A stretch of 63,528 nt of DNA, counting the filler, from Asterionella formosa (taxonomy: Eukaryota): NCBI GenBank assembly GCA_002256025.1. It is 20 parts of 20 records of this genome, joined end to end, with 100 filler letters (N's around TTAATTAATTAA, not from the genome) between each part and the next. Parts side by side here need not be neighbours in the genome. Positions count along the whole stretch, not along the records: positions 1 to 19,789 come from NKIB01003549.1; 19 more parts are not named here. The stretch is one strand, 5' to 3'. How positions within the stretch are numbered: position 1 is the first letter of the stretch; the number at the start of each line of letters is the position of its first letter. Positions 1 through 44,030 of the stretch are shown one piece after another. A program made the translations under genes and the position numbers. The notes beneath the pieces were generated by a model, which saw only the letters and a program-made list of their open reading frames with translations, did no database searches and was not told where the DNA came from.

Positions 1-1
1 A

Positions 2-103
2 CATAGCATGCTGGAGAATGATGGAAGCAAATCGATTTACGAATACCGTCGCCTAGTGCCGATATTAGGTTTCAAGTTTGATCCAGCCATGATGTCATCG
101 TAA
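2..103 (+). CDS. possible 3' end of an unidentified gene (partial)
   Basis: Open frame HSMLENDGSKSIYEYRRLVPILGFKFDPAMMSS* runs from the window edge to TAA at 101-103 and is followed by an intergenic GGTACC cluster; too short to identify. Confidence 0.3.
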   Translation, partial: HSMLENDGSKSIYEYRRLVPILGFKFDPAMMSS

Positions 104-442
104 GTACTGGTACCAGGGTACCTGTGCCCACCATGGTACCAGTACCTACCAGGTACGATACCTGGTTACTACAAGCATAGCGCTATTTGGCTGTCCTGTA
201 GTCGATATATGTACTTAAAAATATATTTGTCTATGAATATATTGCACAGTTCGTATTCTGTTGAGCCGTTGCAGTGGACGATGCAGGAGAGTCGTGCTAC
301 GCTTGGCTCCTCACGAAGGAGACTCGCCGACGTAGGATTGTACCCCCAGGTACCATATGCTATGGTAAACTATCGTATGTATATATACTCTGGAATATTT
401 GTTCAGCCGTTACGCGATGACATTGAGGTGCACCTTTGACGG

Positions 443-522
443 AGTACCAGGTACCTGGTACCTGGTACCTGGTACTGGTACCGTATCTGGTCTACACTAC
501 CTGGTACCTGGTACCTGGTACC
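443..522. repeat. TACC(A/T)GG / GGTACC palindromic micro-array (representative copy)
   Basis: Tandem taccagg/tacctgg/tactgg units. Similar clusters at about 106-165, 3918-3962, 7258-7385, 8760-8848, 11255-11332, 18618-18735, 31925-31965, 35695-35770 and 60305-60331. Confidence 0.9.
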
Positions 523-627
523 GGAAAGTAGGAGGAGTGATCTAAAATTGAGTTGCATTTCAGTTTGCTTGTTTACCGGACACTTCGACATTTACGTAGG
601 TGAGATATGAACAGGCTACATACAATG

Positions 628-712
628 AATTCTATACACGATTGTAAAACAGGACAGAATCCAGAATCCGTGCGTTCGTATACCATACTTGATGTCGAAA
701 TAGGGCAACAAA
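628..712 (+). repeat. dispersed repeat R1, copy 1
   Basis: aattcta-acacga...caggac-gaatccagaatccg...cgtat-ccat-cttgatgtcgaaat is shared with 43951-44030. Confidence 0.8.
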
Positions 713-897
713 TTGTAAAATACAATGCATGTATGAAATCGTGCATGGATTTTGTACTGACACTCAATGCACCATATGAAAAGCATTTTGAGTTACCGGT
801 AGCAAGCAGTACCCATGTCATGCTATTTCGATGTGGTGTTGGATATGATCTCACATCATGACAATAAATAGCAATTCAGATCGAATTTTTTGGCCTG

Positions 898-1260
898 CTA
901 AGATTTAACTGGCACCAAATGGTCCAACTTTGAATCTTCAGGAAATTCATCAGAGGAATTGTCACTTGTAACATCAGCAGGTACAGCATATGCCTTCCCA
1001 AGTTTAGCAAGAACTTTATTACTCTCTTTGGCATTCAGCTCCTCACCTTTCATTACCTTCATGACAGGAGCCGACTCAAACAGTTTGTCATGCAGAATTT
1101 GTGCATTAGTGGCAAAGTGATTTTTGAGCTTGGGATAGTAGTCTTCAAGCACATGATCAAATATTTCACATACTTGCAGAGATGTGATTCCTTGTCTCTG
1201 GAGTGTTACTGTGTCTTTACTGAACTTTAGTATGTGCTTAAATACCATTTGTAACTCCCT
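898..1260 (-). pseudogene. degenerate hAT-like (RNase H-fold) transposase fragment of the oomycete/diatom type
   Basis: TVTLQRQGITSLQVCEIFDHVLEDYYPKLKNHFATNAQILHDKLFESA resembles the T-x-x-LQ...V-x-x-(I/L)FD-x-V-x-EDYP...A-x-I(V/L)H...FESA block of stramenopile hAT-like transposases (recognised from memory); no intact ORF, CpG-poor. Confidence 0.55.
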
Positions 1261-1424
1261 CACTCCCACAATATTGCATAAGAGAAGCAAGAGCATCGAC
1301 CCTCTCAATTTATAAGTTGATCTCAAAGAAACATTTTATCATGGTATACTGAGATGACCATGATGTTACACTTTCTGTGATTACCACATGAGGATTGTAT
1401 TGTCTTAGAGCATCCTACATCTAG

Positions 1425-1755
1425 GTATGCACAAAGGAAACCTTAGCTATATTATTTACATCTGTAGAACGAAATATTTTTGTCCAGAAACACATGCTTG
1501 TCAATTTGTTTAGCTATTTTTTGTTGGGATTAATAGCAAATAAAACATACGCCGATACAGGAAGTCAGCAGTATGCTGGCCAATGAAAATCAATAGCCCT
1601 TAATGATCCACATGTATCGCTATTTAGCATTATACTCGACTAAATATACTAATCTAACCGACATACCCATCCACAGGAGCATCGTCTTACATTTAAAAAT
1701 TATATTTCTTCTACAGAGGGATTCTTGAAAAGATGTAAAACTAGCCGGGTTAGTC
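1425..1755 (+). repeat. dispersed repeat R2, copy 1
   Basis: Colinear similarity with 31070-31386 (tgtagaacgaaata...gctggccaa-aaaatcaatagccct...gctatttagcattatactcg...cagaggg...ggttagt). Confidence 0.85.
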
Positions 1756-2114
1756 CACATGGAACATCTGTCATGTGCAGATAGGATTTTTTGCTCTGGC
1801 ATGTCTCTACTTTGAACTTTTAGTAGAAGCCTCGTTCTTAAAGGATACAAATCAATTTAGCTCGTCCATTTTTTCTTTGTTCAAATATTTTTTGATAAGT
1901 TTAGTAGTAGAAACATCGAGACCTCCTCCCTTGCATAGCTCGATAAGCATCATCATCATTGCTTGTTGTTCACGTAGTAACTGCCGCAACCGATCCATAG
2001 TTCTGCAAACGTGGAAATTGAAAACACATACTAAGTTACTACAGATTCAGGTGTACCAGGAGCCTACAGGTAAGGCTACGTAGTGCTTTGGTTGAACGTC
2101 GCCTCCTCCCCACC

Positions 2115-3071
2115 ATGGTGGATACCCCCATCCCCAAGGAAACGACGATAATTGAAACCACTTTGAATGTTGCAGCTGCAGAATCCTTTAAGGAAGCATC
2201 AAACACAGGAGGAATGGCGACAAGCGATCATGAAGCTATTGATTTCGAAGCAGAATACTTGCTGCTTATGAATGAACCTTCATACAAAACCAACTACAAT
2301 GCAGTCGCAACGATTCTCACAAACAACACAACAGCGCCATATCTACCGACTAAGGACACAATGCACAACTCAAGGCAATACCAGGTAGCGGACAGTAGCA
2401 TCAAAAACAACGACAATCGAAGTCACAGAATTTCCAGTGAATGGAATACCAAAAACTACGAGAAACATGCAGCAGGTATTCTAAAGTCACCAGTGCGATT
2501 ACAACAGCAGAACGACGAAATGAATAAATCAAGACAATCCAAGGCGGCGGATATGAGCATCTGTAACCATGACAATCAGAATAACAACATCTACAATGAA
2601 TGGAATACAATAACCGATGTGGCAGTGGACATTAACATCAACAACAATGATAATCTGAAAAACAAAAACTACAATGAATGGCATACAAAAACCGACGTGG
2701 CAGCTGACATTAACATCAACAACAATAATCAGAACAACAGCTTTTACAATGAATGGAATACCACAAACAACATGGCAGTAGACATTAACATCAACAATGA
2801 CAAGAAGAAGAACCACAGCAGTGACAATGAATGGAATACAAAAAATTCCGCAAATGATAATCTAGCACAGACAGCAGAGCAGTCATCAGCACCATTTGAC
2901 CCAATTAACCACGCAATGAAAAACTCAAGACAACCCAAAGCAGTAGGCAATTGCATCAACAACGAAGACAATCGAAGTCACAAACACAATGCATCATTGA
3001 AGGAACATACTCCAGCACGAAGGGAATGGTTGGAGGAACGTCATCCTTGGGCCCATCATTGGCCCCCCTAA
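2115..3071 (+). CDS. Asn-rich repetitive ORF carried by the 1999-3165 insertion (ORF1-like fragment?)
   Basis: 318 open codons from ATG 2115; repeated NEWNT..DVAVDININN and MxNSRQ...DNRSH motifs; no recognisable domain. Confidence 0.45.
   Translation: MVDTPIPKETTIIETTLNVAAAESFKEASNTGGMATSDHEAIDFEAEYLLLMNEPSYKTNYNAVATILTNNTTAPYLPTKDTMHNSRQYQVADSSIKNNDNRSHRISSEWNTKNYEKHAAGILKSPVRLQQQNDEMNKSRQSKAADMSICNHDNQNNNIYNEWNTITDVAVDININNNDNLKNKNYNEWHTKTDVAADININNNNQNNSFYNEWNTTNNMAVDININNDKKKNHSSDNEWNTKNSANDNLAQTAEQSSAPFDPINHAMKNSRQPKAVGNCINNEDNRSHKHNASLKEHTPARREWLEERHPWAHHWPP
2593..2845 (+). repeat. 75-78-bp coding tandem repeat, three copies plus a partial
   Basis: acaatgaatgg(a/c)atac recurs at 2593, 2671, 2746 and 2824, with gacattaacatcaacaa in each full unit. 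Confidence 0.9.
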
Positions 3072-4798
3072 TGCTTATCATATTCCCCCCGTGTCTATCC
3101 AGGCACAAGTGCGATTATTAGCTTAGTTTTAATGTACTTTAAACATTTTATTTACCCTCCTCCTTCTGCCGCAACCGATCCATCACCACCACCTGTTGGT
3201 TGCACCAGATGAGGGACTATTACAGCTAAAATGGAAAGAGTTGTACTAACTAAAAGTGCTAGTTAATTATAGGCAGATGTGCTATGTAATTGGAATGCTT
3301 CTAGTAGTAGTAGGTTTATTTAGCATCTAAGCATCATTGAGGATGATTGTCATTGATTTGCCAATTGTTGACTCTATTCCCAATTGTTGTCCTCTATGAT
3401 CATCTATGTGAAGATTCCACCATTACATTCTATTCGATTGCACTTCCACAATAAAGAAGATGAGGCCCCAGCCCTTTCCTTGCTTGCTGGCCATCTGTCT
3501 GAATATTGCCAGCCAGTTACATGGAATTCTGGCTGGAGCTAATGTTGTTTCCAAAATATTTTGCACCTTCAGCTGCATCTCGAAAATTGTAAGTCAACAA
3601 TGCTCTCTCCATGACATCTCAAATGCAGCTGTCCATCAGTGAGTCAAGGGTGAATTGGGAGGGTTATTGTCTAAATCTATTTACGATAAAATTATAGATG
3701 CTTATGTTTTCATTAACTTACTTTGAAAACATACTATTGCCCAAATTTCGATTCATGGCATCTTGCAGTATCAAAGCTTGGTTTGATGAAAATGTAACTT
3801 TGTCAAAACAAGTATGTATGGAATTTCTTGTAAGTGTTTTCAGGGATGTATCCTTTGGTTACAGGTGGGGTGCTCAAGAAATGCTTTTACTGGTAAAGAT
3901 ACATAATCAAGGTAACTGGTACCCTTGTACCCTGGTGGAGTACTAGGTACCAGTAGTACCATTGGCAAAGCATTCAGGCAATTAGCATATACCGTACCCA
4001 TAGTAAGTACTGGTAAAAATCTCGAGTCTGAAGGTCGAAACATGACATCTGAATCCTATCGTATGTATCTGGACACGACAAGTCCTATGTGGTGCTGAGT
4101 GTTGCAACTATGTATACATACCCGGTATGTACTGGTAAACAACAAAAATAGTATGTCCTTCCTATTCAGTCATAGCTATAAGCAAGCAAAATATAAACTA
4201 GTGCTGAACTTATCACGACGAAAGCATATGCCGCCGGACACAGAGAAATACAGTTACCAATTGTTTAATTCTACTAATGTGTGCTCTATAAATTCATTAC
4301 ATTCCTTGCTGGGTCAGCATACTGCAGGTAGCAGTAGTACGCTGTCTATCATAAATCCATAAATTGAAGTACTGGCACATACCCACATATGTATCTTCCA
4401 ACATACCGGTACTACATACTGTTGATGTTCACCATTGAATGACTTTATCAGAGGTATGCTGCAATATTCCTCTGCTAGGTATCTAGATTAGTTCGAATAC
4501 CGGTGGCAGAAAAATGCAAACTATATTTATTAGCCACCATCAGCTACGGGTACTGTATACATATGCACACCCAAAACAAATTCAATGATGACACTTACCA
4601 CCTACCCGTCACAATTATTTATCTATGGCCTGTCGTTGTTGCCCTCCCATGGCAGATCCGCGATTTGATTTCCCCCTCCGTCGCTTAACATATAAGCAAA
4701 ACTAGATATTGTACATCATCATGGTGATCTCACCCTTCAAGGGTGACAAGGGCAAATTCGAGACTCTGCCAATTGTTTTTCGTTCCAGACAAAGTGTC

Positions 4799-6032
4799 AT
4801 GTCGAGCAATTCAATTCTGGACGACGGCTTAAGCGATAGACGATCGCCAGATGGAGAAGAAGTTGTCAACGACAACAACAGGAAAAGTTGCTCCACCAAT
4901 GGAACTCCTACAGTGGAGCATGTGGAGCGGCCTGAAATTAGTGAAGACGAAATCTATCGTCCAAGCAATGAATACGTGTTGGTACGTTCGCTTTGTTGAT
5001 ATCGCTGTTTTGGAATAGCTGTACTTTGGCATGAACCACAACCATTGTTAACCCACAAGATCCTATAGAACATTGCATTCTTTTCGTTTTTAGGATTCAT
5101 GGCCGTGCAAGCCATCTTTGCCCTTGTGGCTCACTCTGAATCCTTATTAACCGATTCGGCCGCCATGTCCGTCGACGCTCTCACATATCTATTCAATCTT
5201 TGTGCAGAACGCATAAAATCACGTCCCTACACTCCTGCAGAAATTGACATGCCAAGATGGAAACGTCTCCGAACACGCAAATTGAAACGGTTGTATTTGG
5301 AACTGGTGCCTCCCTTGATTAGTGTTTCCACATTACTTGCAGTCACCATCGTTGCCTTTCAGGTTAGTATCGAAACCTTGTGGAACTACGGTGATACATC
5401 GAATAAAGAAGATGATGTCGATGATGTAAATGTTGGAATCATGTTATGTTTTTCGGCTTTGAATTTACTTTTGGATTTGGTGAATGTCATGTGCTTTGCA
5501 AAGGCACATCAGGCATTTGGATTGAATACTTCCATTATTGCAACACCCGGACAGCAGCAGAAGGAATTACCAATGACAGAACGGACACCTCTCTTAACTC
5601 AATCATCACAGGGTGGTATTGAAGTCGAATTAGAAGCAATGTCTGTGGACCATTTGGAGGACGAGGAGGAGGACGACAATGATAACGATGGGATTAGAAT
5701 GAATCTGAACATGTGTTCGGCATGGACAGTACGTTGAAGTAACATTGCTGCTGTATTGTTTGCTCGACTTTATTTCGCTGACATTTTTCTTGTTGTACTT
5801 TATTTAGCACGTGTGTGCAGACACTCTTCGATCCATTGCTGTCTTGATTGCAGCTGGTATTGCGTCCGTCTTTCAAGGAGTTCAGAATGATGCAGCAGAT
5901 GCAATGGCAGCCATGGCTGTTTCTATCATTATTGTTGTATCTCTATTTCCATTATTACATGGATTATTCTTGACAGCTCAAGAAATTCACAGCTTGCAAA
6001 TGAAGCAAAACGGAATGAGCCTTTGCAAATAG
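4799..6032 (+). CDS. cation diffusion facilitator (CDF/cation efflux) family transporter, 3 exons
   Basis: Exons 4799-4981, 5069-5728 and 5808-6032 join in frame across GT-AG introns. TM2 SESLLTDSAAMSVD and TM5 NLNMCSAWTHVCAD (HxxxD) motifs. An upstream ATG at 4721 is an alternative start. Confidence 0.88.
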
Positions 6033-6071
6033 GGATGTTTAGGAGAAAGGACAGTTAGATAATACTAAATA

Positions 6072-7169
6072 TCACAATGCTAGCATGGCATCATTGAGCT
6101 TCGAAAAGAACTCGTGCACACTTTGTTTGGGCTCGTTTACATCTAGCACATCATCCACGTTCAATACAACGCCAGTTGTATCCACCATATGCTGCATAAC
6201 TTGCTTAGCATCTTTCCAACTGCATCGTTGTGACGCCACTGCAACACTAGGTTCTACTCCATACGTTTGATGCCACCAATGGGCTGGAATGACAAGCAAG
6301 TCGCCCGTTTGCTGCACTGTTGACCACACTGTTTGTAAATGCGGGAAATCGGCTTGTAGCAATGACGGTGACGATGCAATGGTGGATAAATACTCCAGTC
6401 GTTCCGCCTCGTCCAAATTTTGATACATGTCCCTTGCAGATGGGATTGTTTCATGTCGATGTGCATATAGCCGAAAGTCGGATTGCCACCCTGCACTCAA
6501 CCCTCGGTCGTCCCAGGACGTTGATGGCAATCGATAACTGCCTAATAGTTCATCCACAACATGTACATTGTCATTTGGTGGCTCTATAAATCTCCATATT
6601 TTGGTTCCTTCCAAACATATGCTTGTTCCCGTCCATTCAAATGGGTCTCGATGTAGTGTTGACATGGAGCCTTCCCCAGCAAAAACGACACAGTCTGACG
6701 GCACAAGGTCTGTAGGAAAGTATTGAAACCAATCTTCATTAGAAAATACAGATTCCTTGACATTTTGCAATTCTTGCCTAATCTCATTGAACATTGGCTC
6801 GTCCAGCAATCCCTCCTGGAAACACCAAAATGCATCGTCATGTGACGATTTCAACATGATGTAATCAATGGCTTGTTTCATTCCGAGGTCATAAATGTCT
6901 ATGGCGATTTTTCTTCTCCGTTGTAGTTGAACTTGAAGAGATGGTTGTTGCAATATGGCTTCGCAAATAGCTTCACATTGTTGGGCTGTCAATACGTGTT
7001 CAATAATGATGGGGGTTTCTCTAGTGGTGGATGCTTTATTATTGCTGTCGTACACATGATGATGTCGAGCCAAAAAGTCCTGAACGGAAACTCGTGGAAT
7101 GTCGACGTGATGTTGAAATGCTGCCGCGACAGAAACGACAGCGACGAAGGCGATCCACAAATAACTCAT
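6072..7169 (-). CDS. JmjC/cupin-like 2-oxoglutarate Fe(II) oxygenase with signal peptide
   Basis: STLHRD (HxD), GTKIWRF and GDLLVIPAHWWHQT motifs; hydrophobic N-terminus ending VSVAAA-F. Confidence 0.9.
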   Translation of the reverse strand: MSYLWIAFVAVVSVAAAFQHHVDIPRVSVQDFLARHHHVYDSNNKASTTRETPIIIEHVLTAQQCEAICEAILQQPSLQVQLQRRRKIAIDIYDLGMKQAIDYIMLKSSHDDAFWCFQEGLLDEPMFNEIRQELQNVKESVFSNEDWFQYFPTDLVPSDCVVFAGEGSMSTLHRDPFEWTGTSICLEGTKIWRFIEPPNDNVHVVDELLGSYRLPSTSWDDRGLSAGWQSDFRLYAHRHETIPSARDMYQNLDEAERLEYLSTIASSPSLLQADFPHLQTVWSTVQQTGDLLVIPAHWWHQTYGVEPSVAVASQRCSWKDAKQVMQHMVDTTGVVLNVDDVLDVNEPKQSVHEFFSKLNDAMLAL

Positions 7170-7670
7170 GTGATAACATGGACGACAATAAAATGAAATT
7201 TAGTCGATGGATAAGAAAAATTTTCTTTGTGGTCGACTCTTGATTTACCGGTAAGAGCACCAGGTACCCTGGTACCAGGTACAGTAGTCTTGTTAGCACC
7301 TGCTCTCGAGGTAGGAGTACCTGATACCGGGTACCTCGAGTATCAGGAATCAGGACCATCATGTACCAGGGTACCTGGTACAATACACGGAACTCCGTTC
7401 TTTTATGCCATAGGCCGCCGTAGGCTATGTGACGGCATGTCTGCACAGCCTTTCTGTACGGTGCGTCGTGGATACTAGGTACCAGTAGCATGAATTTACC
7501 CTGATGCATGCTGCCGTCGAAGGCGAACGACGATATCAATATGAGATTCATGTATATGTAATAATATAATGAACACAATCGTATCAGGCAGAAGGTGAAG
7601 GAACCAGTGACGAAAAAGGGATGCAAGCCAAACAATCGTTCACTCCTTTCCCAGACAATTGAACGAAACC

Positions 7671-8481
7671 ATGAACAATAAGTACGCCATCACCATCGTT
7701 TTCACAGTTTTCTTTTCTCTTGGCTTGAATAACGTTGACGCCTTTACCACCACATCAAAACCGATTGGTCGGCCTCGCCAATGCTTCGCACCTGCGAAAT
7801 CAACTCGTCATCAGGCTACCAAATTGCAATTGGATCTTTCATCATGGAATACAATCTTGTCCCCAACCAGCATCCATGATGCCTTTAGTGTCGCAACATT
7901 TTTTCCTCAGCCGTTTTGGCTGCTCTTGGTATTTTTGCCAAATTCAGGAATTGCGAAGAAGATTATGGGTGGAATGGGTAAGTGCGCAAGCGAGTATGCC
8001 CAATGGTTAAATTGTGTGTGTCCGTATGTATACCATCGTTGCATATCCATACATGTGGAGAACTCACATGCGTTTAACACCACCACCATTTGTTACAACA
8101 GAAATTGTCACTTTGTGTTGCTTAGTTCACATTTTTATTGTATCAGCATCAATTGTCCAACCAGAAGCAACAGCTCCACTTGCGGAGTTTTCAGGAGTCT
8201 TTGATCCTGCAGGCGATCCTCAAAAGGCTTTTATTGGGATGATGCAATATCCTAATTTTATATCTGAAGAATGGTCCCATGTACTCACATGGGACATTTT
8301 TGTGGGTCGTTGGATTTGGCTAGATGGGATCAAGAGAGGGATTTTCACATCACATTCTGTGTTATTGTGTAATTTCATTGGACCACCTGGTTTATTGTTG
8401 CACTGGGTCACATGTCTAGTTTCAGGCAAGGGCATTGTAGAGAATGAGGTGGAAAGTATTGTGGAGGAGAGAGTAGCCTAG
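7671..8481 (+). CDS. ABA4: ABA DEFICIENT 4-like / DUF4281 plastid membrane protein, 2 exons
   Basis: Exons 7671-7977 and 8102-8481 (gtaagt...caacag intron, in frame). PFWLLLVFLP, WSHVLTWDIFVGRWIWLDG and HSVLLCNFIGPPGLLLH motifs; signal peptide ending VDA-F followed by a Ser/Thr/Arg-rich transit peptide. Confidence 0.85.
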
Positions 8482-9154
8482 AAATGCCATTGAAGCAAGC
8501 AAGGAATGATAGTAAATCTGCATAAATTGACTTTTTAAGGTAATTGTGAACATATTTACTCTCTTTTGACATGTGAGGATGATACCAGCATTATTATCTC
8601 TCTATTTAGTATAGATTGAGATTAGTTATAGAGACTCATAACGACTGAACCTTTGGGAGGCTCCAGTACAGATAAAAATCATTTTGGGTTGCCCAAATAC
8701 CGGTGCGGTAGCATGGCTCATTTGTTCTACCGGTATTATGGAACAAATTGAGCCATATTAGCTACCTGGTACCGTACCGGTAATGCATATACCAGTAAAC
8801 TGGTACTGGTACCAGTGTACGTCCCGGGTACATGGTACAAGGTACCGTAGATGTTCATGTTGCAGTTGATGAGTCCAGGTTGCGCGCCATATTTTCATAT
8901 ACGGTAAATATATTGTTGTTTCGTAGACCTATTTTTCTTACCAGTACAAGAGAGAGATACAATCTACATGTCGTTTTTCCTTTTATTGGTATCCCAGCCA
9001 TCCTTGTTCGTGTACATATGATCAATCATTATACCAGGTACCAGGCACTGGCAGTCTAGTCTACCGATATTATTGGTTGTATGTATGATTGGGAGTCCTC
9101 TGGTCTCATTCAGTCATCACTCGGCGAAACCAAAGGCTCAACAACCCTCTCATC

Positions 9155-10075
9155 ATGTCCTCCACGACGGATTCGTCAAGTCTGGTGACCCTTCTAGATC
9201 CCTCCGTCAACTCCAAAACCCTTCAAACAGCCAAAATAATCTCGTTGCCACATCCCAGCGACAATGAGGCGCAAGACTTCATCTTTCTCCCTCGTACTGC
9301 TGCTTCTAACCAACCCGCCATAATTCTTCAAGTTCAATCCTTCCAAAAGTCCTACGGAAGTTTCCTGGTGGGATCACGCGTCATTTCCAATGGTGCGTTG
9401 CATGTTGCTACTCCAGTGGATCCCTTGTTTTTTGTGTTGGAGGCATTCGCAGCTGCTCCTCAAAAGTGGCAACCTCTAGAGCAATTATTAGTGGGAGTAC
9501 CAGACTGCGTCCAGGAAAGCATTTCATCCCCCCTGCAATACAAACATTTGTGTTGCACAAACGATCAACTTGGAGACGACATGATTTTGTACAAGTTTCA
9601 AACGGAGTTGGCCTTGGCATGGCTGACCAAAAAATTCAATGCCGCCAAGCAGGTGTTGTTGGACCAGCAGCAACGGGGTGTACTATCTGGTGGTGCTTTT
9701 ACCAAGACGTTTCATCATGTCCCGGATACCCCTTTGGATCAAAGTGTTCTGGAACAGGAATCCTGCCAAGTTGTCTGTGACTTTCTTTCTGCGGAATGGA
9801 CACGAACATTAATGCACCAGTTGAACCTTGCCATCATTAGTACTCCAGTAACAACCACACCCAAGCGCCAATGGGGAGAAATGGCAGGAGCTGACTCTCA
9901 TGAGGTGTTGCTAGAAATGACACTTGGCAATGTTGTATCTGTTGAAAAGGCCAAGCAAAAGGAAGGAGTCCAAAAGAAACTCAAGGCACAAACCAGTGGT
10001 CTCAAACAATTGGCCAAAGTCAAGACCAAGGGAATGAAGAGCATGAGTTCCTTTTTCAGTGCCAAGACCACCTAA
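9155..10075 (+). CDS. RNASEH2B: ribonuclease H2 subunit B
   Basis: ISLPHP and SFLVGSRVISNGALHVATPVDPLFFVL motifs, plus C-terminal PIP box KGMKSMSSFF. Confidence 0.88.
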   Translation: MSSTTDSSSLVTLLDPSVNSKTLQTAKIISLPHPSDNEAQDFIFLPRTAASNQPAIILQVQSFQKSYGSFLVGSRVISNGALHVATPVDPLFFVLEAFAAAPQKWQPLEQLLVGVPDCVQESISSPLQYKHLCCTNDQLGDDMILYKFQTELALAWLTKKFNAAKQVLLDQQQRGVLSGGAFTKTFHHVPDTPLDQSVLEQESCQVVCDFLSAEWTRTLMHQLNLAIISTPVTTTPKRQWGEMAGADSHEVLLEMTLGNVVSVEKAKQKEGVQKKLKAQTSGLKQLAKVKTKGMKSMSSFFSAKTT

Positions 10076-10168
10076 TAAAAGCCAAGGGAGGCTGCTACTA
10101 CACAAAGTCAATAAAATATAGTTCCTACATCTATCCATACGTATGTACAGCGCCATTCCATGGCTCAG

Positions 10169-11121
10169 TTACTGCCGCAAATGCGTCACTTTGCAATTGA
10201 TATCTTTGCAAGCACCTTGCTGTTGTCGATGCGAGACAAAGTTCGATGCCAACAACATGGCACATCCTCCAATATTCACAACACGATGCCAAAATCCTTC
10301 ATGTATGGTATGTAGTAACTCATGAGGGATTCGATGCAACAGCCATCCATCGTGCGCGTTTGCAGCGTAAATGAGAATCAGACCAGCAAATGCTGGAATC
10401 GAAATCCTCGCTTTCTTATGCGACAGGAAATTCATGGTCGCTGCTGTTCCCCCGACTGTTGTAGTACCACGGGAACGAGTAGAGGGTGAGTATTCGATGA
10501 ATGAAACAGAATATAAGATGGTCGGTAAAAACTGCAAGATATAGAAACTTCCTTACCCGGCAATACAAAGAAAATGGCGACGGAATGGCCGAACTCATGC
10601 AACCATTCCATGTGACCCGGCGCTGCCATGCCCAAAAGCGGGAACAAAATAGTGACAATGGGCAGTACGGTGCAATCAATTACACACAAGATTGATGCCA
10701 AATTGGCCAAGCGGACCAACCGTTGCGATGTGGTTTGCCAGAAGGACTCCTTGTCCGTCGCGGAGGGAGAGGGGGTATCCACAATTTCCTGGCAAAAGCC
10801 ACCGCGATATCGAATGCTGGAGGGACCGGCGGGAATAGACACTTGACGCATCATGGCTCTATCGGACGGTTCTGATAGAATTTGCTGCAGTTGGATGGAT
10901 TTTCCGAAGAAATCAGATTCTTCTGACGCTTGTCGAAAAAAGAGCAGCGACGGTTTCTTGGAATAACTACTGCTCGGCCGTTTCTTCGGAGGCTCTGAGG
11001 CGACGAGGCTATGACTTGTTGAAGCGTTCATTAAGACCAGCGATGCAACCAAAACAGGAGAGCGCAACGCAAGCATTCGAAGTAGCGCAATGTGCACTGT
11101 TGATTTTCGAATTCTGCCCAT
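10169..11121 (-). CDS. MerC-domain membrane protein, 2 exons
   Basis: Exons 11121-10557 and 10455-10169 (gtaagg...caacag intron, in frame). ASILCVIDCTVLP matches the MerC TM1 S-x-LC-x-(I/V)-x-C motif; further TM helices and a Cys/His tail. Start could be 11076. Confidence 0.75.
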
Positions 11122-11623
11122 TGTCGTTCGGCAATGATTTACCAATACGACTGAACAAAGTTGGCCGTTGTTCCAAATATGAAGTCTGCAATTTTTTGTC
11201 GTCATCCACCCGAGCCGAGGCCTAAAAAAGGGCCTGACGGCAGCTATAACATACGTACCTGGTACCAGGTACCCTGGTACCATCATAAAAGACACATGAG
11301 ATGTAGCTGGTACCCTGGTACCTGGTACCTACGATACTACATACCAGCATCCAAATTTAGAAATGCGTGGTTTCTGTAGGAGACTGGTAGTAAACTAACT
11401 GTACTACGTATGCCTGTCAGTTTTAACTATGTAGACGACCTGACACAATGTACCCGCATGGCACGTAAATAGAATGTATGTGCGGTAGTCGTCAGTTGAC
11501 GACGTCATGAGTGCGTCAGATTTGACATCTGGCGGCCGTGCTTCAATTTTCTCGCCCCGCTTGTTGTTTGCCTATTACCGGTACCGGTATTCTGCTAGAA
11601 TGTCTTTTTCCATTTACCGGTAT

Positions 11624-11695
11624 ACATTCCTCAGACTGCACCTATTCTTCGGACACCTGTCAACGTCAACAGCCTAACAGACACATTCTGACATA
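11624..11695 (+). repeat. dispersed repeat R3, copy 1
   Basis: acattcctcagac...tcttcggacacctgt..ac.tcaacagcctaacagaca.a.tctga is shared with 56392-56460. Confidence 0.85.
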
Positions 11696-12340
11696 GCAAA
11701 AGGGGTGCTGATCAGGATTATAACAGAGATAAAAATTTATTATTTAATATCGAAAAAATTAGAATCATTACAAAGATACAATTCACAAATATATTTCAGT
11801 AATGGCAAAACAGGCAGCCTTTTTCTTCTTGTCTCCTCAAAAATGTGCATCAGACTCAGCAAAAAATAGCAATGGGCAGTTAATTATTACCATCTGCCTG
11901 ACAATCATCATTACTCAAATGCATGAAATAGTTAGCTACTGCTTTCTTTTTTCAAGAAATCCATTCATCACTGCTTGTTTCTCTTTTTTTGTTGCGGGAA
12001 GTTTCAATGGATTATGCTGTGTAAGAGTTCACAGCAGCATCAAGGAACATTTGAAAGATTGCAAAAACAGATGTAAAAGAGGGGCCCTATGCATGGCAAA
12101 TGAAAATGAGGTTTCCGCCAGCAAGCCAGCCAAGGCCAATAGAAAAGATTCAGCTCTGTATAAGTATGCTGATTTGTGCTGTTTATACCAGAACTTGCAT
12201 TTGATTTGACAGCATCAACTGTGATGGAAAGTCGACGAAGTAATTTCGGTAGGTGATTGAAAGCTTGAAAGGACATGTGATATTCTTAATCGCATGGATG
12301 CACTGGAGCTACTATAGAAGGGTATTTACAGCCTATCACT

Positions 12341-12584
12341 GGGAGAATGGCTTAGTTGTGGTTAGCACTCCTCACGAGGAGACGGTTTCGATTTCTGCAT
12401 TATCTGCCTGACTTCCTTTTATGTACTAGTCCCTAGGTTTCCGGTGTGTGTGGCTGACAAAGAGACAGGTCCTAGCTATTGTACCGTATTTACAAATAAA
12501 ACCAGCTCAAATCATTTCCATTCATGTGGGCACCAGTGCGATTATGGATGGTATAACATAATATAAGATTTATTTAACATTTTT
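12341..12584 (+). mobile_element. tRNA-derived SINE, full-length copy A
   Basis: Head gggagaatggcttagttgtggttagc...ggtttcgatttctgcatt (A/B boxes), shared body gacaaagagacaggt, AT-rich tail. Flanked by 18-bp TSD tatttacagcct(a/t)tcact at 12323-12340 and 12585-12602 (1 mismatch). Confidence 0.85.
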
Positions 12585-12771
12585 TATTTACAGCCTTTCA
12601 CTAAACCAAGAAAAAGGGATTATGAAGGCTTTCTTCAAGCATATTAGTCTGGACCTTTTACCATGTCATATGGATTCAATGTTCAAGCTGTTTGAAACAG
12701 TAAGAAGTAACAGAAACATGAACAACAAATGCAGCTCATTAGTTTTGCAATTTTTTACAAGTGATGAAAAT

Positions 12772-12930
12772 GGGGGATCGCTAACTTGGCTAGCATGCCT
12801 TCCAAGGTGGGATTCGATTCCTGCATTCTCCACTTGTCTTTCTTTTTCATGTAGTCATTAAGATTCTGGGTGCATGGGTAATAAAAAAGAGACAGGTCCA
12901 TTGTACTGTATGGACGAATAAAACCAGTAC
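12772..12930 (+). mobile_element. tRNA-derived SINE, copy B (head and body; 3' part diverges)
   Basis: ggattcgattcctgcattctccac...ctttttcatgtagtc...aaagagacaggtcc...gaataaaaccag aligns with copies A and C; no convincing TSD found. Confidence 0.75.
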
Positions 12931-13546
12931 TGATCCCATCATTCCAGCACCCAAAATCATTTTGTTTGTTCGGATGATACTGGGTTCTTCTTGGTAAGTA
13001 AGTATACAAACACCAGGACTGGCAACGCCAGGAAGCGCTACGCATTCCACCCTTCTAGCAAATGAGCGAGTAGTCTTAAAGCGCTTCATATAAGGGAAGT
13101 TAAATTTTAGAAGCGATGATAAGCATAATTACAAGAGTAGCAATAATAATTGCTGTTGATTACTCCTCCCAAAAATCATTTCCATCATTGTTGCTGTTCA
13201 AGACAAAAGTGGTGTCTTTGTTGATTAATTTAATTACATGACATACATTAAATTTATAAAAATAGTGTTGCCTACACTGTATCTGCAACGATACACACAG
13301 ATAAACATTTCGGCGCAGCAAAAAATGTGTTGCTGCAAGTACAAGCAACATGGCTGAGATACAAAAATTCGGGCTTTTATATTAGCAACATATTTTTCCT
13401 TTTTGTGTCTCTATGATTTAGGCCACCATAGAAAAGGCCGATTTTGTCGAATTTTTGGACAACAATAGCTCAACGTTGGCTAGGCCTGAAGGCAATTTAG
13501 ATACCTAGATAGTTTTCAAACAGTATCAGTACGGTATATTTCTTCC

Positions 13547-13877
13547 GGCAAGAAACTGCAGAAAGGAACTTCGGTTTTTACTATAGCAAATAAACAGATT
13601 TCCCCTGAGTTTTCTAGTCTTTTTAGCATAGTAGCTAAAAAAACTGAAGTTCCTTTCTGCAGTTTCTTGCCAGAGCGATCCATTATCCTGATGATATATA
13701 GAGTGGACCTACACCCCTACTTTGACAGAAGACTGTATGTAAGCATATGGAAAGGGTTTCTATTGGTGTAAGCTCCACAGAGCATTATATATATTTATTT
13801 TGTGAAAAATACGTGTTTGATTAGTCTGACTCAATATTATTTTTCTAGCCCTACCTCGAGCTAGGGGTTCAGATGCA
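13547..13877 (-). repeat. dispersed repeat R4 containing a 33-bp inverted repeat
   Basis: Arms 13547-13579 and 13639-13671 are reverse complements (1 mismatch). About 13600-13877 is the reverse complement of 59257-59553. Confidence 0.85.
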
Positions 13878-14081
13878 TTGAAAAGAGAATCTGTTTCCAC
13901 GAGAAAGCCCAAAACTGTCGTTTTGTTATCCCAGACAGATTCTTTTAAGCAGAAGCTAACTCGACCAAGATCTATAGGCCAGACGGCCTATGCTATATTC
14001 GTATTCAATCAAGCTCAAGATATAGCACTGTGCGCAACAAACTAAACCATCATTCTATCTATGATTTCTCTTTGAGTCAGT

Positions 14082-17000
14082 CTATGCACGAACAGCCTGA
14101 TTGAGGACCTCCTGGACACCGCGTCTACCAGCCTTACTCTTCTCACGTTTGAGTTTTGCCTCGCCATGTCGCAGCCACTCCACAGGGTCGGCTCCAGCCA
14201 GATCGACTAGACCTGTTTCCTTTAAAATATCTTGTTGACGACACAGCAGGCGAAGATAAGCCATGTCACCTTCCTTAGGCGGTGACCCATGAACTTGGAC
14301 GCATTCCTGAAGCATCATGAGTGCAGATCCCACCTGCTCACGTTTGGCATAGTATTCGATTAATGAGCCATAGGATGCAAGATCCATTTTGCGACCATCT
14401 GATTCAATCTTTTCCTTGAATTCCAAAGCGCGAGATAGGCGTTTGTTATTCACCAACATTTGTAAAACCAGTCGGTCACTGTATTCGTTAGGTTCAACAC
14501 CATACCCCTTGAATTGCTCGTCGTGCACGGCTAAAGCCCGGCCAACCTTTCCGGCACTTGTGACGACTTGGAGCATGCCATTCACCATATGACAGTCAAC
14601 GAGATTGTCTTCTTTGGCCTTTTGAACGCAAAAGTAGGCATTGAGAATGTTCCTTCTTTTCAACCAAGCATTGTCAACCCGGTTCGGCATATTCTCTCTC
14701 AGAAGTGGAACCAATGTTATCATTGATGGGTAGCTTAATGTTGCAGCAAAGGCTTCGCGAACTTTGACGAGTCTATTTCGAGGCATTCCAGGTAGGACCG
14801 CCTCGAGATCCTCCAAGTCGTAGTCTAAGGCTGACTTTCCTTCAACAATAGACGCCATATCCTTGCTATTGTCACTTTCAACTGGGAACGATGCCGATAC
14901 GTCTTCGCCATTTCCACCAGACATTTGATCGTCAACAGAAACGGAATCTTCATCTGAGGGTGCGTTGAACAGATTCGCAATCATGTTGTCAAAGTCATCC
15001 TCCGTGTTTCCACCAGGTTTCATATTTGTGAGCAACTTCTCAATTTCAGGATTTTTCAACATGCTTGCCATTGTGCCATCTGGATCGTAAAAACCAGCGG
15101 AGCCTCCCATCTCTGGAGTTTTCTTCAAGATATCATCCAGCTGTATATTGGGTCTATCTTTCCCTAAATATTCCGATTTCGATGCGCGCTGCTCATTGAA
15201 ACTTGCGTCTTGGATTGTTGTCATCTTACGAATTTTAGTTTTGGAAATTTTTAAACCCAACGAACACGTAGCTTCTTCGGCGAAGTCAGGATCAGTTGCC
15301 ACTTTCTCGTCAAACTCTTGTTTCATGGATTTGTACATCTCTCGGGCATCCTCCTCAGGCATGACTGATCCACCCATTTCACTTGACATCAGAGTCTTGA
15401 AGTGTTCATATGTGAATGAGCTTTCATCATCTTCAGCTTCGTCAAACAGAGAATTGTTCTATAAAGTGGGGGAAGAGGATAAAATGTGAGTGTGGAAGCC
15501 AATAACGCCCAAGTTTCGGGAGGTGAAGGATGAGAGATCGTGTCTTCAAATATTATTCCCATGCATCGATCCAGTGAGAACAATGACTAGGCTCAATAAA
15601 GAGAGTGTTCCGCTGGCAACGTGCAAGTTAAGCATGGGATTGTAATGGAAACAAATACTGTTACTCACCGTCGCACTGGGCCGTTTGTTTGATGTTTGTG
15701 CTGCAGAGAGTTGCCCTTTACTTGCTTGGGCTTCTTTTTCAAACATGGTGAGGCTAGCTTGTACTGCCTTAGGACGGGTCTTCCACTTCATTTCATCTTG
15801 GTCGAAGTAGTACTCCTCCTGCACTTCCTCTGTTTCAGATGTGTCAATTTCTAAAGTGGTGGTCGTGTTGCTACGTTTTGATACCTGAGTTTTCTGCTCA
15901 GCAATGACTGCCTTAGGATCCACCATTCTCGATTTCCATTTCATTTCATCTTGATCGAAATACCACTCCTCTTTCGGCTCGGTAACTTTCGGTGTCATCA
16001 CTTCTGGCTCTGAAATTTTCGGCTCCACAACCTTTGGTTTGTCCACGACCCTACCAGTTCGATTGCTTGGCGTCCTGAATGCCCATTCACTGGCCTTCTC
16101 ATCCCACACGAAACCTCCTTCTTCTTCAAGCCCTGTCCGTGGTACGACTTTTCCAGACTCAGCATTGTAGTACATACTGTTGGCATGTTGGATTATTTCG
16201 GGTATTTCCTCGTCGACATCCCCTTCGTCGAGCATAAAATTTGGGTCGGGCATTCCTGTCCAATCGCGACCTTGAATCAAATGAAGACGCCGCATAGTTT
16301 CTTCGTGGCTATCTTCAATGCGTTTCTGATAATCGTCTTCGTACATTTTATAGAACTGGGGATCAATTGTATCCATGTCAAATCCCCAGTCCGGGTCTTC
16401 TTTGCCGCCTTCGTACTTGGCTCGACGCAGGCGCTTCGACATTTCTTCAGCCCCTTCGTCTTGAAGATTCATACCACTCAATCCCACCTCTGTTCCACTT
16501 GTTCCGGGAATGGTATTGTCGTGGTACTGCGGTTTTTGGATGGAAGCAATGAGTCGAAGCGAGTTTTCGTGAAGGTAGCCCTTGTTTTCCATACCACTCC
16601 ACATGTCACCCATACCCTTTGGATCAATGGCAGACGCGCATGCCTTCATCAATGCTGTAAGGACACGATTGTCTTTTCCGCCATACTCCCTTTCTTCAAA
16701 GGCAGTCCGGCTCTTGCGAGCGTTCATTAGCGAGGCAACGGCGGGACTTACGTCGCCAGCGTCGGACAAAGCAACATCCTGACCATCCCCAGTCCAATTC
16801 TGTACTGCATTCCCTGGCATTACCATGTGCTTGACACCTCCACTCACTTGTGCCAGTCCATTGACAATATCTTGCTGTTCCAATCCTGTCCCACGTAATG
16901 CCGCTAAATGTGATTCAGGTCCAATAGTTCTTAAATGATCCATCCGTCTAACTTCACTTGCCAACAAAATAGCCTTTGCCGTAGCCGAGTCTCCTGCTGC

Positions 17001-18470
17001 GGCGGCACACAACATGAGTGCTGCAACAAATCCATCGTCTTGCACCACTTCTGCTTGTTCCGCCTTGATAACAATATCTCGGGTCATTCGACCGTGATAG
17101 AGGGTAAGTTTTTCTCTACGTCGGAATCGTCGTGAGGCCCCATTCTCATATCTAATGGAAGTTTCATGAGATCTTGCTACAGCCTTAAGGGCGGCAGTAA
17201 AACACAGGGTAGTTGGCTTGACCTTAAATTGTCTCATTTCATCCAATATGTTAATGGCTTGTTCTGCTCGTCCCTGTGCGGCCAAAAGTCTTAAAATGGC
17301 ACCATAAGCCATGGGATCGGCGTCTATTCCATTGATCCGCATTTGCTTCCATTTTTCCCATCCCAGCTTTCCTGCTTGAGCCCGAATACTTGACGCTACA
17401 TGTCCCGCGTTGCACACTTTGAAACAAGCAGCCAGCAAGGAAGTGTACGCCGGTAGATCTGGTGGAACTCCGGCCTCCTTCATTTGGTCCATCACTGAGT
17501 TGCATCCTTCAAAGTCACCAATACGTGCATGTATATCAATTAAAATGGACCAACTGTAGACGCAAATGGGTACATCACGTTGAGTCATGATCAACATTAC
17601 TTTTGCGGCTTCCTTGGGTGTTTTGCAGCAAGTCAGAAGAGTAGTATAGCACTCTTGACCAAAAAGGGTGGTTGGAATCTTCAATTCTTCGATAACGTGA
17701 TTTAATGCATTGTGCAGTCCAATGGGCTTTGCTTTAGTACCGTTCTTGTCGCGGTACGCCCGAAGGACAAGGGCCACTTGTCGATCGCTGGGCGGGGGGA
17801 CTAGTGGAATGGCCGCCTTTTGTTCGTCAGTGGCCGCAACCAGTTGCTTGGCTGAGAATTTTTCGTAGCGCGCCATGGTTTTCTGTACCTTTTTGAGCAG
17901 TCGGCCGTGATAGTCTCCCAAATACACGGGTTCCGGCGACGGCGTCGATGACAGGTGCGCCGTGTTGCCCATCAAATCATCGAGTAGGGCGTCACTGAAT
18001 CCATATTCTCCTCCTCCCAAGGCCGACGTTTCCTCTTCTTTTTTGCCGCCTCTCTTCCTCCATTCGATCAGTTCTTGTGTTTGTTGCTCGACCCACTGTC
18101 GCCTGGGACCTGCCGTGGACCCCGGTGCTCCGTGCTTCCCCTTCCTTTCAAATTCCACTGCGGCCTTTCGTCTGTTTTCTTTCTTGACTCCCTTTTTGTT
18201 CACCTTACGTTGTTTGAAGAAAGATTTGCTACCGTCGTTACGTTTGAACCGGAATTGTGTATGGCAGTGCAGGTGATTGGTGGTGATGGGAGACGACGCG
18301 AGTGTTGGCACAGCGATTGCAATGGAACTGTAACATCGACGACGCAGTTCATTGATGGATGTTCTTGTTTGGATTTCGGCAGATCCTCTGCTACTGCTGC
18401 TGAACAGTGACAAACTATGAACCGATAACGGAAGTCTTCTCTTTGTTGCAGCCCGTGAGATCATCATCAT
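14082..18470 (-). CDS. pentatricopeptide-repeat (PPR) protein, about 1392 aa, probably mitochondrial, 2 exons
   Basis: Exons 18470-15669 and 15458-14082 (gtgagt...ttatag, phase 0) join the two long ORFs. PPR motifs (VYSWSILIDIHARIGD, LPAYTSLLAAC, MAYGAILRLLAAQG, LASYGSLIEYYAK); Arg/Ser-rich N-terminus. Confidence 0.9.
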
Positions 18471-19173
18471 GGTGAGTCGCTTTTTGATTTGGAAGCATGT
18501 CGAGATGTATTTGATTTTGTTATGGAATATTATACCGGTAGTAGCAGTAGCATTCTTCCTCGGTATTAATTTAACGAACGGTGAGATTCGATCCCCAAGG
18601 AGAATGATTGATGGCTGGTGGTACCTGGTACCTGGTAGCACTAGCCATGGGCGGTACCAGGTAAAGGTACCTAATCATACATACAGCTACCGGTACTACT
18701 ACATACCGGTACATACATCTAGGTACGGAGTACCTTAGTAGCAGATGCAGAGGCACGGACAGCCATCGATTCTTCGTCTTGGGCTGATTCCAAGCACGAT
18801 GGCGGACGGACGAGATCCAGACAATCCACCATTGCCTGTCATGGCATCACCCGACTCAGCTTTTATGACCTGAGATGTGACAATATATTTCTGAAAAATA
18901 TGGAATGTTTGCTGTTCTTCCTCACTGATTGATGGTGAGTCCTTGATGATAGTAGCTGTTGTTACTGTTGAAGATGTTGTCATTGGAAGTCGAAGCCAGG
19001 GCCTAAATTGAGATTTCTTGAACACAGAGAACTCCATGCCTTTCTTCCTTTTCTTGAACTTGTTTTCAAAAAAAGCGACTGACAGCGTGGTGCAGCAGCA
19101 GCTGCTGCCTTCTTGTTGTTATGTTAACCTGCAAAAAATGTCAATTAAATTTTATAGTAAGACATTAAAGCTA

Positions 19174-19789
19174 CCGTATACTTCATTGTCCTGGACCCCC
19201 TATACATTTTTCGAGGTGGCACCAAATACCCAATAATTTTCTAGACATAGACAGAGTAATGTGCTACATCTAAGCCGCGTATTACGTGAAGTGACCATCA
19301 CGTAAATAAGCCTAGTTGATTTTGAATGGATCACATGAATTAGTTGAATACATCAAAATGCTTACTTGAATATATCTATATATTATCTGAATACATCACG
19401 TTAATTATTTGATCAGAGTATCATGCATGCATTCCTGATCATCACTATATTACGTGATCACCTTCACATAATTATTTGAAATACTTCAATTAATTCTGTA
19501 ATTCAGTTCACATTGCCTTAAATTTTTGTTCACGTAATGGTTCACGTAATTTATTAAATTTTTTTACGTATTTTATAAGTACTATCAAATAATGTTGATT
19601 ACTAATTCACCAACCGGTATTTCACATAACATGGGAAACAAATCTCGATATGCAATCAAACGAAGCAGTTCTTTCAGAATGGCATCTTCAGTCTTGAGAA
19701 GGCAGGCATTATGAGAAATCTGTAAGGACAATGCAAGACAAACAGAAGCCATGCATTCTGAATGAAAAAATCATTCATTCTTGAAGAGG
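19174..19789. mobile_element. left end of a TA-flanked TIR element (pogo/Tc1-mariner-like) with subterminal TCACGTAA repeats
   Basis: TA|ccgtatacttcattgtcctggaccccc matches 25/27 to the reverse complement of 34466-34492|TA; followed by tcgag(g/a)tggcaccaaa, also seen at 33915; truncated by the contig end. Confidence 0.65.
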
Positions 19790-19889
19790 NNNNNNNNNNN
19801 NNNNNNNNNNNNNNNNNNNNNNNNNNNNNNNNNTTAATTAATTAANNNNNNNNNNNNNNNNNNNNNNNNNNNNNNNNNNNNNNNNNNNN
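19790..19889. other. artificial contig linker N44-TTAATTAATTAA-N44 (first of 19)
   Basis: Identical 100-bp spacers start at 19790, 21117, 22444, 23771, 43658, 44984, 46302, 47628, 48954, 50280, 51605, 52930, 54255, 55580, 56905, 58230, 59554, 60878 and 62202. Confidence 0.99.
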
Positions 19890-20012
19890 CCTACATAATA
19901 TATAGTATTTACATTATTTGTTTACAACCTCATAATTTGTTATCAACTGTTTTATGTAGTGCTAGCTAGTTCCATAAATTGCATTTTAACATACATTACT
20001 AGTAAACCAGAG

Positions 20013-22443: not shown

Positions 22444-22543
22444 NNNNNNNNNNNNNNNNNNNNNNNNNNNNNNNNNNNNNNNNNNNNTTAATTAATTAAN
22501 NNNNNNNNNNNNNNNNNNNNNNNNNNNNNNNNNNNNNNNNNNN

Positions 22544-43950: not shown

Positions 43951-44030
43951 AATTCTACACACGAGTGTACCACAGGACGGAATCCAGAATCCGTTCGTAT
44001 GCCATCCTTGATGTCGAAATCGGCAGAACG
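43951..44030 (+). repeat. dispersed repeat R1, copy 2
   Basis: Matches 628-712. Confidence 0.8.

Follow-up and report, generated by a model that had tools for sequence, protein, structure and literature searches.

The tails of SINEs derive from the 3' ends of their partner LINEs and are recognised through them, as excerpts of two papers describe (PMC5786205, PMC3747384). UnaSINE1/UnaL2 and CR1-like LINE/SINE pairs are named as tail-sharing pairs in PMC2323293. Non-autonomous elements with other layouts are HAL1 (half-L1), a derivative of L1 that is described as encoding ORF1p only (PMC5753468), and RIME, which corresponds to an ingi that lacks the central 4.7 kb (PMC2323293).

The window analysed here is a stretch of 63,528 nucleotides (filler included) of the Asterionella formosa genome. 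At 1999-3165 it probably carries a young member of an mRNA-like, non-autonomous and LINE-dependent family of retroposons that uses the same machinery as a tRNA-like SINE. The earlier note had put forward such a second non-autonomous family with the tail of the SINE as one of its readings, and it is the one upheld by the multi-copy nature of the element, its sharp common 3' end, the significant likeness of its tail, a target site duplication (TSD) of 18 bp as in both intact SINEs, and the lack of reverse transcriptase (RT) and endonuclease. Since it is multi-copy, derived from RNA and ORF-carrying, with no copying enzyme of its own and with a SINE-like 3' end and footprint, the element counts as a commonplace type of genomic parasite, found here in a freshwater alga that has been little studied. 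A literature search gave no publication about SINE/LINE pairs from the group to which this alga may belong, which is not a claim that the family is unpublished.

The insertion and its family

The insert spans 1167 bp and is bracketed by an exact direct repeat, CTGCCGCAACCGATCCAT, identified by repeat search of the window (Table 1). The chance of an exact pair of 18-mers in a stretch of 2.2 kb is estimated at ~3.5e-5 (2200^2/2 divided by 4^18). The ORF-bearing insertion with an exact 18-bp TSD that was previously claimed is borne out, with identity at 18/18 positions. The repeat search found no terminal inverted repeats in the insert, and its sequence has no A-run directly before the 3' TSD (position 3166). 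The left junction is spanned by record 1 of DNA run X1, and the right junction by record 7 of X1 and record 24 of X3. Record 18 of X3, which extends just 28 letters to the right of 1998, was left out of the left-junction bridges. A clean allele of the empty site was not seen: the sole contig linking 1961 with 3215, from X2, has 28 letters on its shorter side, which is below the reliability bar, with unread letters in between, and its joint differs from an exact 1998/3184. The insertion is likely to be recent and to represent a young copy of an RNA-derived mobile element. It provides a dated, probably polymorphic insertion marker.

Table 1. Features of the insertion and of the tail-bearing elements of the window
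Feature	Position	Strand	Description and basis
TSD, 5' copy	1981..1998	.	18 bp, 100% identical to 3' copy
5' leader, 116 nt	1999..2114	+	conservation in relatives starts no later than ~2080 (P0011 reads through there)
ORF, 318 codons plus stop	2115..3071	+	Asn-rich, acidic, nested repeats
Internal repeat	2406..2849	+	five copies of 75-78 nt (25-26 aa), each ending NEW(N/H)T; repeat search
3' untranslated part (~85 nt)	3072..3156	+	includes SINE-like tail of ~65-70 nt (3086-3155); shuffles, alignment, nhmmer 3086-3155
Copy-specific extra bases, ~9-11 nt	3155/3157-3165	+	between tail end and TSD; sequence, L082 and tail alignment
TSD, 3' copy	3166..3183	.	18 bp
SINE A	12341-12584	+	18-bp TSD (17/18) at 12323-12340 and 12585-12602; tail related to that of the insert
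Tail-only fragment	19140..19208	-	same tail family; shuffles, nhmmer
SINE C	38190-37948	-	18-bp TSD (17/18) at 38208-38191 and 37947-37930; weak tRNA-like head

The insert is one member of a dispersed multi-copy family whose copies have diverged. In the DNA runs X1, X2 and X3 the summed contig depth over 1967-3181 is ~10-30x that of the flanks, a metagenome depth and not a copy number. The region is matched by 236, 1059 and 228 contigs of these runs, respectively, with likeness ranging from >99% to <90%. A set of 11, 16 and 14 contigs (X1, X2, X3) stops matching at 3143, runs on for about ten more letters of the tail and then diverges into unlike flanks, and the common 3' end of the family lies at ~3154-3156. 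A common 5' boundary with similar support is absent among the loose ends listed; note that contigs break at repeats. The number of internal repeats also differs between family copies, as seen from contig joints 2397>3024, 2589>2677 and 2645>2574.

One independent metagenome copy, L082, is 82.7% identical to the window copy over insert positions 224-1158; it has its 3' end at the same place as the window copy's tail and continues into an unrelated flank. L082 has decayed neutrally. The two copies differ at 11.5% of first, 14.2% of second and 11.5% of third codon positions and at 12.7% of the trailer, and indels of lengths that are not multiples of three are present. Frameshifted fragments occur also among the 23 relatives (see below). 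The commonest family differences listed include 26 sites in the ORF (9 first, 6 second and 11 third codon positions), too few to argue for or against selection. L082 is the one confirmed copy, among the matches listed, of a protein-guided metagenome scan that gave at least 594 pattern matches; its Asn-rich patterns were poor and are uninformative on rarity. BLAST detected no second copy of the insert in the window, with matches limited to internal repeats and low-complexity sequence. In genome_contigs there were no matches to a 20-mer pattern of the tail nor to a 22-mer pattern of the ORF. The 81 viral_contigs loci that carry a 16-mer of the tail are chance matches, because they have no further similarity to the insert or to the SINE at E <= 1e-3.

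The element is also represented in RNA contigs. In the poly(A) library X8 the contig depth is above zero in every bin of 1967-3181 and zero in 1400-1966 and 3182-3424. One contig of 481 nt matches 2573-3053 exactly, and one contig ends in a plus-sense A-run shortly after 3147. An X8 contig also links at least 255 unrelated letters with the tail at 3091, and four X3 contigs have their joint at 3102. Being contigs, these data cannot prove strand, ends or transcription. Carry-over of DNA in X8 is possible, but the silent flanks argue against it.

Coding capacity and 3' tail

The Asn-rich ORF noticed earlier in the insert was confirmed on the plus strand: 57 residues of its 318-aa product are Asn (18%), and the pI is 5.8. 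The probability of an open frame of 349 codons at the base composition of the insert is ~1e-9. The product matches no Pfam family and has no PDB relative. Its AlphaFold2 model is mostly low-confidence and disordered (mean pLDDT 51.6, pTM 0.25), with one long helix at residues 126-192 whose pLDDT reaches 91 in places. Among 1.84 billion representatives 23 relatives were found, all of 220 aa or less, and no homologue outside the family.

The claim that no RT or endonuclease is visible in the insert holds: neither domain was found in the ORF by Pfam or PDB, and the 23 relatives show no fusion to a longer protein or to an RT or endonuclease domain. None of the 118 ORFs of the window matches an RT or endonuclease family. 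As its ORF encodes neither enzyme, the element relies on enzymes acting in trans. An autonomous LINE was rejected as a classification for lack of an RT or an APE or REL endonuclease domain (Pfam, PDB, relatives), an L1-type processed retrocopy for lack of an A-run directly before 3166, and a SINE in the strict sense because of the length of 1167 bp, the ORF of 318 codons and the missing small-RNA head. Note that no tRNA was found in the insert, and that 1900-3250 has no Rfam family, with the exception of one chance sub-threshold match.

The tails quoted in the earlier note for the insert, for SINE C (near 38000, minus strand) and for SINE A (near 12530) agree with the sequence. Their resemblance exceeds chance. 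The local score of the insert tail against the tail of SINE C, the one most like it, is 45 versus 16.2 +/- 2.3 for shuffled sequences and was reached by 0/500 shuffles; the scores against SINE A and the fragment at 19140-19208(-) were reached by 1/500 and 0/500 shuffles, respectively. The proposal that insert and SINE end in the same 3' tail stands in this respect, but the tail does not adjoin the TSD, from which it is separated by the copy-specific bases. Comparable stretches of 8-9 nt follow the tails of SINE A and SINE C. All three intact tail-bearing insertions of the window have TSDs of 18 bp (18/18, 17/18 and 17/18 identity; n=3), while no TSD was found within 650 nt of the fragment at 19140-19208. 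An nhmmer profile of the tail run over the window matched just its four source tails, the next best match having E = 0.73. Several tails of stringent LINEs carry secondary structure. As a point against the reading favoured here, no significant or conserved structure was found for the tail of the insert: its fold is no better than that of shuffles (single sequence, z = -0.48), and RNAalifold predicted no pairs on five tails.

Mode of spread and origin

The spread of the family could proceed as follows. A source copy would be transcribed from the plus strand and polyadenylated, the RNA contigs being observed and the polymerase presumed. The RT of a sequence-specific ("stringent") LINE would recognise the ~65-nt tail common to the element and the tRNA-like SINE. 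The 118 ORFs of the window and the collections searched (viral_contigs, metagenomes, genome_contigs) yielded no LINE carrying this tail, so that we infer this recognition from SINE/LINE biology. The RNA would then be copied into a target whose two nicks lie 18 bp apart, a mechanism that would generate the observed duplication of 18 bp. Inserted copies would decay neutrally, as observed for one of them.

Two origins of such a retroposon deserve consideration. It is conceivable, though it falls well short of being probable, that the element arose from a LINE by internal deletion, as the other reading of the earlier note has it and in the manner of HAL1 or ingi/RIME; the 5' end and ORF1 would have become fused to the 3' tail with loss of the RT-encoding ORF. 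A leader, a single ORF and a SINE-shared tail are the layout that such a deletion would leave, precedents are found in HAL1 (ORF1p alone; PMC5753468) and RIME (ingi minus 4.7 kb; PMC2323293), and the long helix of the AlphaFold2 model is compatible with this origin. However, the ORF product lacks relatives in Pfam, in PDB and at greater distance, is acidic and is mostly modelled at low confidence or as disordered. Nucleic-acid-binding ORF1 proteins are usually basic. A somewhat more doubtful origin is a cellular or selfish protein-coding gene whose 3' UTR gained the SINE/LINE tail and whose mRNA was repeatedly retroposed into a swarm of retrocopies. This would agree with the mRNA-like unit of leader, ORF and short trailer found in poly(A) RNA contigs, with the pseudogene-like decay of the copies examined next to the 318-codon frame kept by the window copy, and with an ORF unlike any known LINE protein. 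Against it, a parent gene with introns is not known, the search of 1.84 billion representatives gave no homologue outside the family, and an Asn-rich repeat protein of variable repeat number shows no sign of a cellular role. It is a rather unlikely prospect that the ORF is not a LINE relic but a lineage-restricted gene for an acidic Asn-rich repeat protein, which captured the tail in its 3' UTR and spreads through the genome as an independent retroposon, on the LINE machinery like a SINE; intact transcribed copies, this one among them, would still make protein.

Explanations other than the favoured one fare less well. Truncation at the 5' end is usual for LINEs, and an insert that is a 5'-truncated copy of an autonomous LINE, with the ORF as an extra frame downstream of the RT, would account for RNA record 25, which carries 168 further letters upstream of 2006. 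Because of this contig longer forms may exist, and the 5' end of the family may lie upstream of 1999. The RT ORF of LINEs is normally found directly before the 3' UTR; here that place is taken by 954 nt of an unrelated ORF, fusion to a longer protein is not seen in any relative, and the ATG-initiated ORF with its conserved leader (P0011) looks like a complete unit. Such a truncation is therefore improbable. Still less credible is the case that the earlier note had named as refuting its proposal, namely that the interval is a minus-strand spliceosomal intron flanked by duplicated exon sequence. GT and AG dinucleotides are present on the minus strand near 3154 and 2003, but splicing at them shifts the frame and leads to a stop ~15 codons later. 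Removal of the insert does restore a minus-strand frame, as had been reported; this frame is however just ~60 codons long from stop to stop, with its first ATG inside the repeat. It has no Pfam match, and its sole near-length relative is the same locus in another assembly (47/48 residues). RNA contigs of the poly(A) library on the putative intron, with none on the putative exons, argue against this view, as does the occurrence of the interval as a dispersed repeat with other flanks elsewhere. A DNA-level event, either a cut-and-paste transposon or a repair-mediated filler insertion, can be given equally little credence. A flanking direct repeat alone does not specify the mechanism, but the insert has no terminal inverted repeats, and its 18-bp duplication is, to our knowledge, longer than in any DNA transposon superfamily. 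The sharp common 3' end with no equally supported 5' end and the tail common to the tRNA-like SINE also speak against such an event.

Comparison with known systems

The LINE-dependent retroposon favoured here defines a second tail-sharing family beside the tRNA-like SINE, both of which leave an 18-bp footprint. The combination of the 65-nt tail and the 18-bp stagger provides a precise handle for finding the LINE that drives both families. If the ORF proves unrelated to any LINE protein, the element would clearly exemplify a coding gene that spreads by mimicking the tail of a SINE; if not, the family would be a routine addition to repeat libraries.

The insert resembles the processed retrogenes and pseudogenes of L1-type LINEs, as described in part of PMC3747384, in its mRNA-like unit, flanking TSD and neutral decay of copies. 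It differs from them by the absence of poly(A) before the 3' TSD, by its high-copy family, by its SINE-type tail and by the lack of a known parent gene. With HAL1 it has in common that it is a non-autonomous retroposon with one ORF and no RT. The ORF of HAL1 is demonstrably ORF1 of L1, and L1 works by way of poly(A), whereas the ORF of the insert has no known relative and its DNA copy has no A-tail but a specific tail common to the SINE. The ingi/RIME pair and the L1Tc/NARTc pair of trypanosomes offer a further parallel, namely a non-autonomous partner derived from or paired with a LINE and not a small RNA, according to excerpts of PMC2323293. RIME and NARTc are short elements without coding capacity whose parent LINEs are known, in contrast to the protein-coding insert. 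The TSDs of ingi/RIME have a regular length of 12 bp. The SINEs of SINE/LINE tail-sharing pairs differ from the insert, which measures 1.17 kb, lacks a small-RNA head, carries an ORF of 318 codons and is present in poly(A) RNA contigs. As in those pairs, its ~65-nt tail is common to the tRNA-like SINE, it encodes no enzyme and its TSD has the same length as that of the SINE.

Footprint and dispersal of the insertion

The 1167 bp at 1999-3165 lie between two exact direct repeats of 18 bp (1981-1998 and 3166-3183), identical at 18/18 positions as the earlier note had claimed. The estimated chance of such an exact pair within 2.2 kb is ~3.5e-5. The locus sits within the contiguous stretch 1-19789. 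Its left junction is spanned by contigs of the DNA metagenome run X1 and its right junction by contigs of X1 and X3. The insertion therefore did not arise during assembly of this record, with the caveat that the window itself may derive from one of the bridging runs. A clean empty allele was not seen in contigs of X1, X2, X3 or the RNA library X8.

The insert is a member of a repeat family and not a one-off. Contigs of the three DNA runs were aligned at a likeness of at least 80%, the runs containing the locus being labelled freshwater or algae metagenomes. The alignments comprise 236 (X1), 1059 (X2) and 228 (X3) contigs whose likeness ranges from >99% down to <90%. Summed contig depth over 1967-3181 is ~10-30x that of the flanks in all three runs (~9,000-39,000 versus ~950-3,000 in X2), metagenome depth not being equivalent to copy number. 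The match ends at 3143 in 11 (X1), 16 (X2) and 14 (X3) contigs, all of which carry on for some ten further letters of tail before parting into unlike sequences; the copies thus have a sharp common 3' end at ~3154-3156 with differing flanks beyond. No comparably supported 5' boundary is found among the loose ends listed for these runs, which fits ragged 5' ends without proving them.

Another metagenome contig (L082) carries an independent copy that matches insert positions 224-1158 at 82.7% identity, and its unrelated flank begins at the same end point. Mismatches between the two copies amount to 11.5/14.2/11.5% at codon positions 1/2/3 and to 12.7% in the untranslated trailer, and their indels are not multiples of three. 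Element copies would accordingly decay neutrally, as shown for this one copy. The window copy retains its frame and a perfect target site duplication (TSD) and so is either a recent insertion or akin to a source copy.

A distinct repeat lies in the left flank at 1540-1730 (core ~1569-1660). Its summed depth is above that of the insert family (59,035 in the X2 bin 1562-1642), X1, X2 and X3 all show its sharp loose ends at 1569 and 1659-1661, and its second window copy (31205-31357) is 75.6% identical.

Other genes of the window are eukaryotic and code for PPR proteins, a PP2A B56 subunit, an RNase H2B domain, a copia-type gag and an ABA4-like protein. By eye, the ABA4-like amino terminus resembles a signal peptide with a Phe after it, an arrangement found in algae whose plastids are complex and of red type, and the source may thus be such a complex-plastid alga. 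The copia-type gag and a Plavaka-type fragment show that other mobile elements are present. In 19790-23870 and 43658-62301, 44 N + TTAATTAATTAA + 44 N, a six-frame stop linker, recurs every ~1326-1327 bases; these regions are therefore artificially joined ~1.2 kb pieces and not contiguous genome. Two of the pieces, 21217-22443 and 22544-23770, share 99.1% identity, and long 441-aa "ORFs" spanning N runs are artefacts.

Features of the window
Feature	Position	Strand	Remarks
ORF of the insert, single, long	2115..3071	+	318 aa
ABA4-like protein	7611-8478	+	split over two frames or intron
SINE A, tRNA-like, intact	12341-12584 (with TSDs 12323-12602)	+	18-bp TSD, 17/18 identical
Partial SINE copy	12771-12931		without tail
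Tail-only SINE fragment	19140-19208	-	
Plavaka-type transposase fragment	29000-29614	-	
SINE C, tRNA-like, intact	38190-37948 (with TSDs 37930-38208)	-	18-bp TSD, 17/18 identical
Copia-type gag	56957-57856	+	zinc knuckle

Reading frame and transcripts

The insert ORF contains 57 Asn (pI 5.8) and five repeats of 25-26 aa, each ending NEW(N/H)T. A 349-codon open frame has a probability of ~1e-9 at the insert's base composition, so the frame is real or was lost only recently. The ORF has no Pfam family and no PDB relative, and its AlphaFold2 model is poor (mean pLDDT 51.6) with the exception of one long helix. Rfam returned nothing real over the insert. Reverse transcriptase and endonuclease families, of which the earlier note saw no sign, were found in 0/118 window ORFs scanned outside N-masked stretches. 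Protein searches gave only family fragments (4/1558 candidates belong to the family). The 23 matches among 1.84 billion representatives are 52-220 aa long and 49-88% identical; none is fused to a longer protein, and several are frameshifted readings or continue into the tail. One database protein joins a bacterial-looking lipoprotein amino terminus to the last ~40 residues of the ORF family and is probably a chimeric metagenome contig.

Contigs of X8, a poly(A) library from the same sample as X2, cover every bin of 1967-3181, with depth 0 on 1400-1966 and 3182-3424. One of 481 nt is identical to 2573-3053, another, which stems from a copy of 95% likeness, terminates in a + sense A-run soon after 3147, and others represent family members without 2398-3023 or with one extra repeat unit. 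A further contig reaches 168 letters past 2006 on the upstream side, so the window copy may start short of the family's 5' end. At least 255 unrelated letters are joined to the tail at 3091 in yet another, which points to a third transcript with this tail, possibly that of the LINE. As contigs are no proof of strand, ends or expression, the RNA evidence is suggestive only.

The RNA pattern is the reverse of that of an intron. The minus-strand intron envisaged in the earlier note is rejected on this ground and because the proposed GT and AG, if used as splice sites, would shift the frame to an early stop. Removal of the insert does restore a minus-strand frame, as had been claimed, but one of only ~60 codons stop to stop, with its first ATG inside the repeat and no Pfam match; the only relative in the near-length class is this very locus from a different assembly (47/48 residues).

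The tail shared with the SINE

The tail sequences quoted earlier for the insert, SINE C and SINE A read as written. The last ~65 nt of the insert align with SINE tails with scores of 45, 29 and 28 (shuffle means ~16, sd ~2.4), values reached by 0/500, 1/500 and 0/500 shuffles for SINE C, SINE A and the tail-only fragment, respectively. Outside the tail, the insert has no resemblance to the SINE. All three intact insertions carry 18-bp duplications, and 8-11 poorly conserved bases separate the conserved tail from the TSD in each. Common tail and common footprint length point, in these three sequences, to one integration machinery for insert and SINE. The SINE C head matches the Rfam tRNA model weakly (21.5 bits, E = 0.039; gathering score 29), and ARAGORN found no tRNA in the window SINEs.

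Origin and relation to known elements

The best-supported reading is that of a non-autonomous, mRNA-like retroposon. Direct observation covers the 18-bp footprint, the dispersed family, the tail in common with the SINE, the missing enzymes and neutral decay in one copy; recognition of the tail by a LINE reverse transcriptase, like the LINE itself, is inferred. The tail-recognising LINE behind the SINE would mobilise this element in trans as well, inserting it by target-primed reverse transcription at a break with an 18-bp stagger. A strict-sense SINE, a LINE and a DNA transposon were all rejected as its class, as was an L1-type processed pseudogene, the insert having no A-tract.

Of the two origins offered by the earlier note, a second non-autonomous family with the SINE tail is supported by the multi-copy family, tail similarity, 18-bp TSDs and lack of enzyme; the other, an internally deleted LINE, may account for the element. 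The LINE itself is needed to choose between that origin and a coding gene that captured the tail and spreads by tail mimicry, which we consider unlikely.

The element is of interest mainly to annotators of algal repeats. A general principle, stated in PMC5786205 and PMC3747384, is that LINE 3' ends are the origin of SINE tails. Documented analogues are HAL1, described in PMC5753468 as coding for ORF1 only, and ingi/RIME, presented in PMC2323293 as a deletion derivative.
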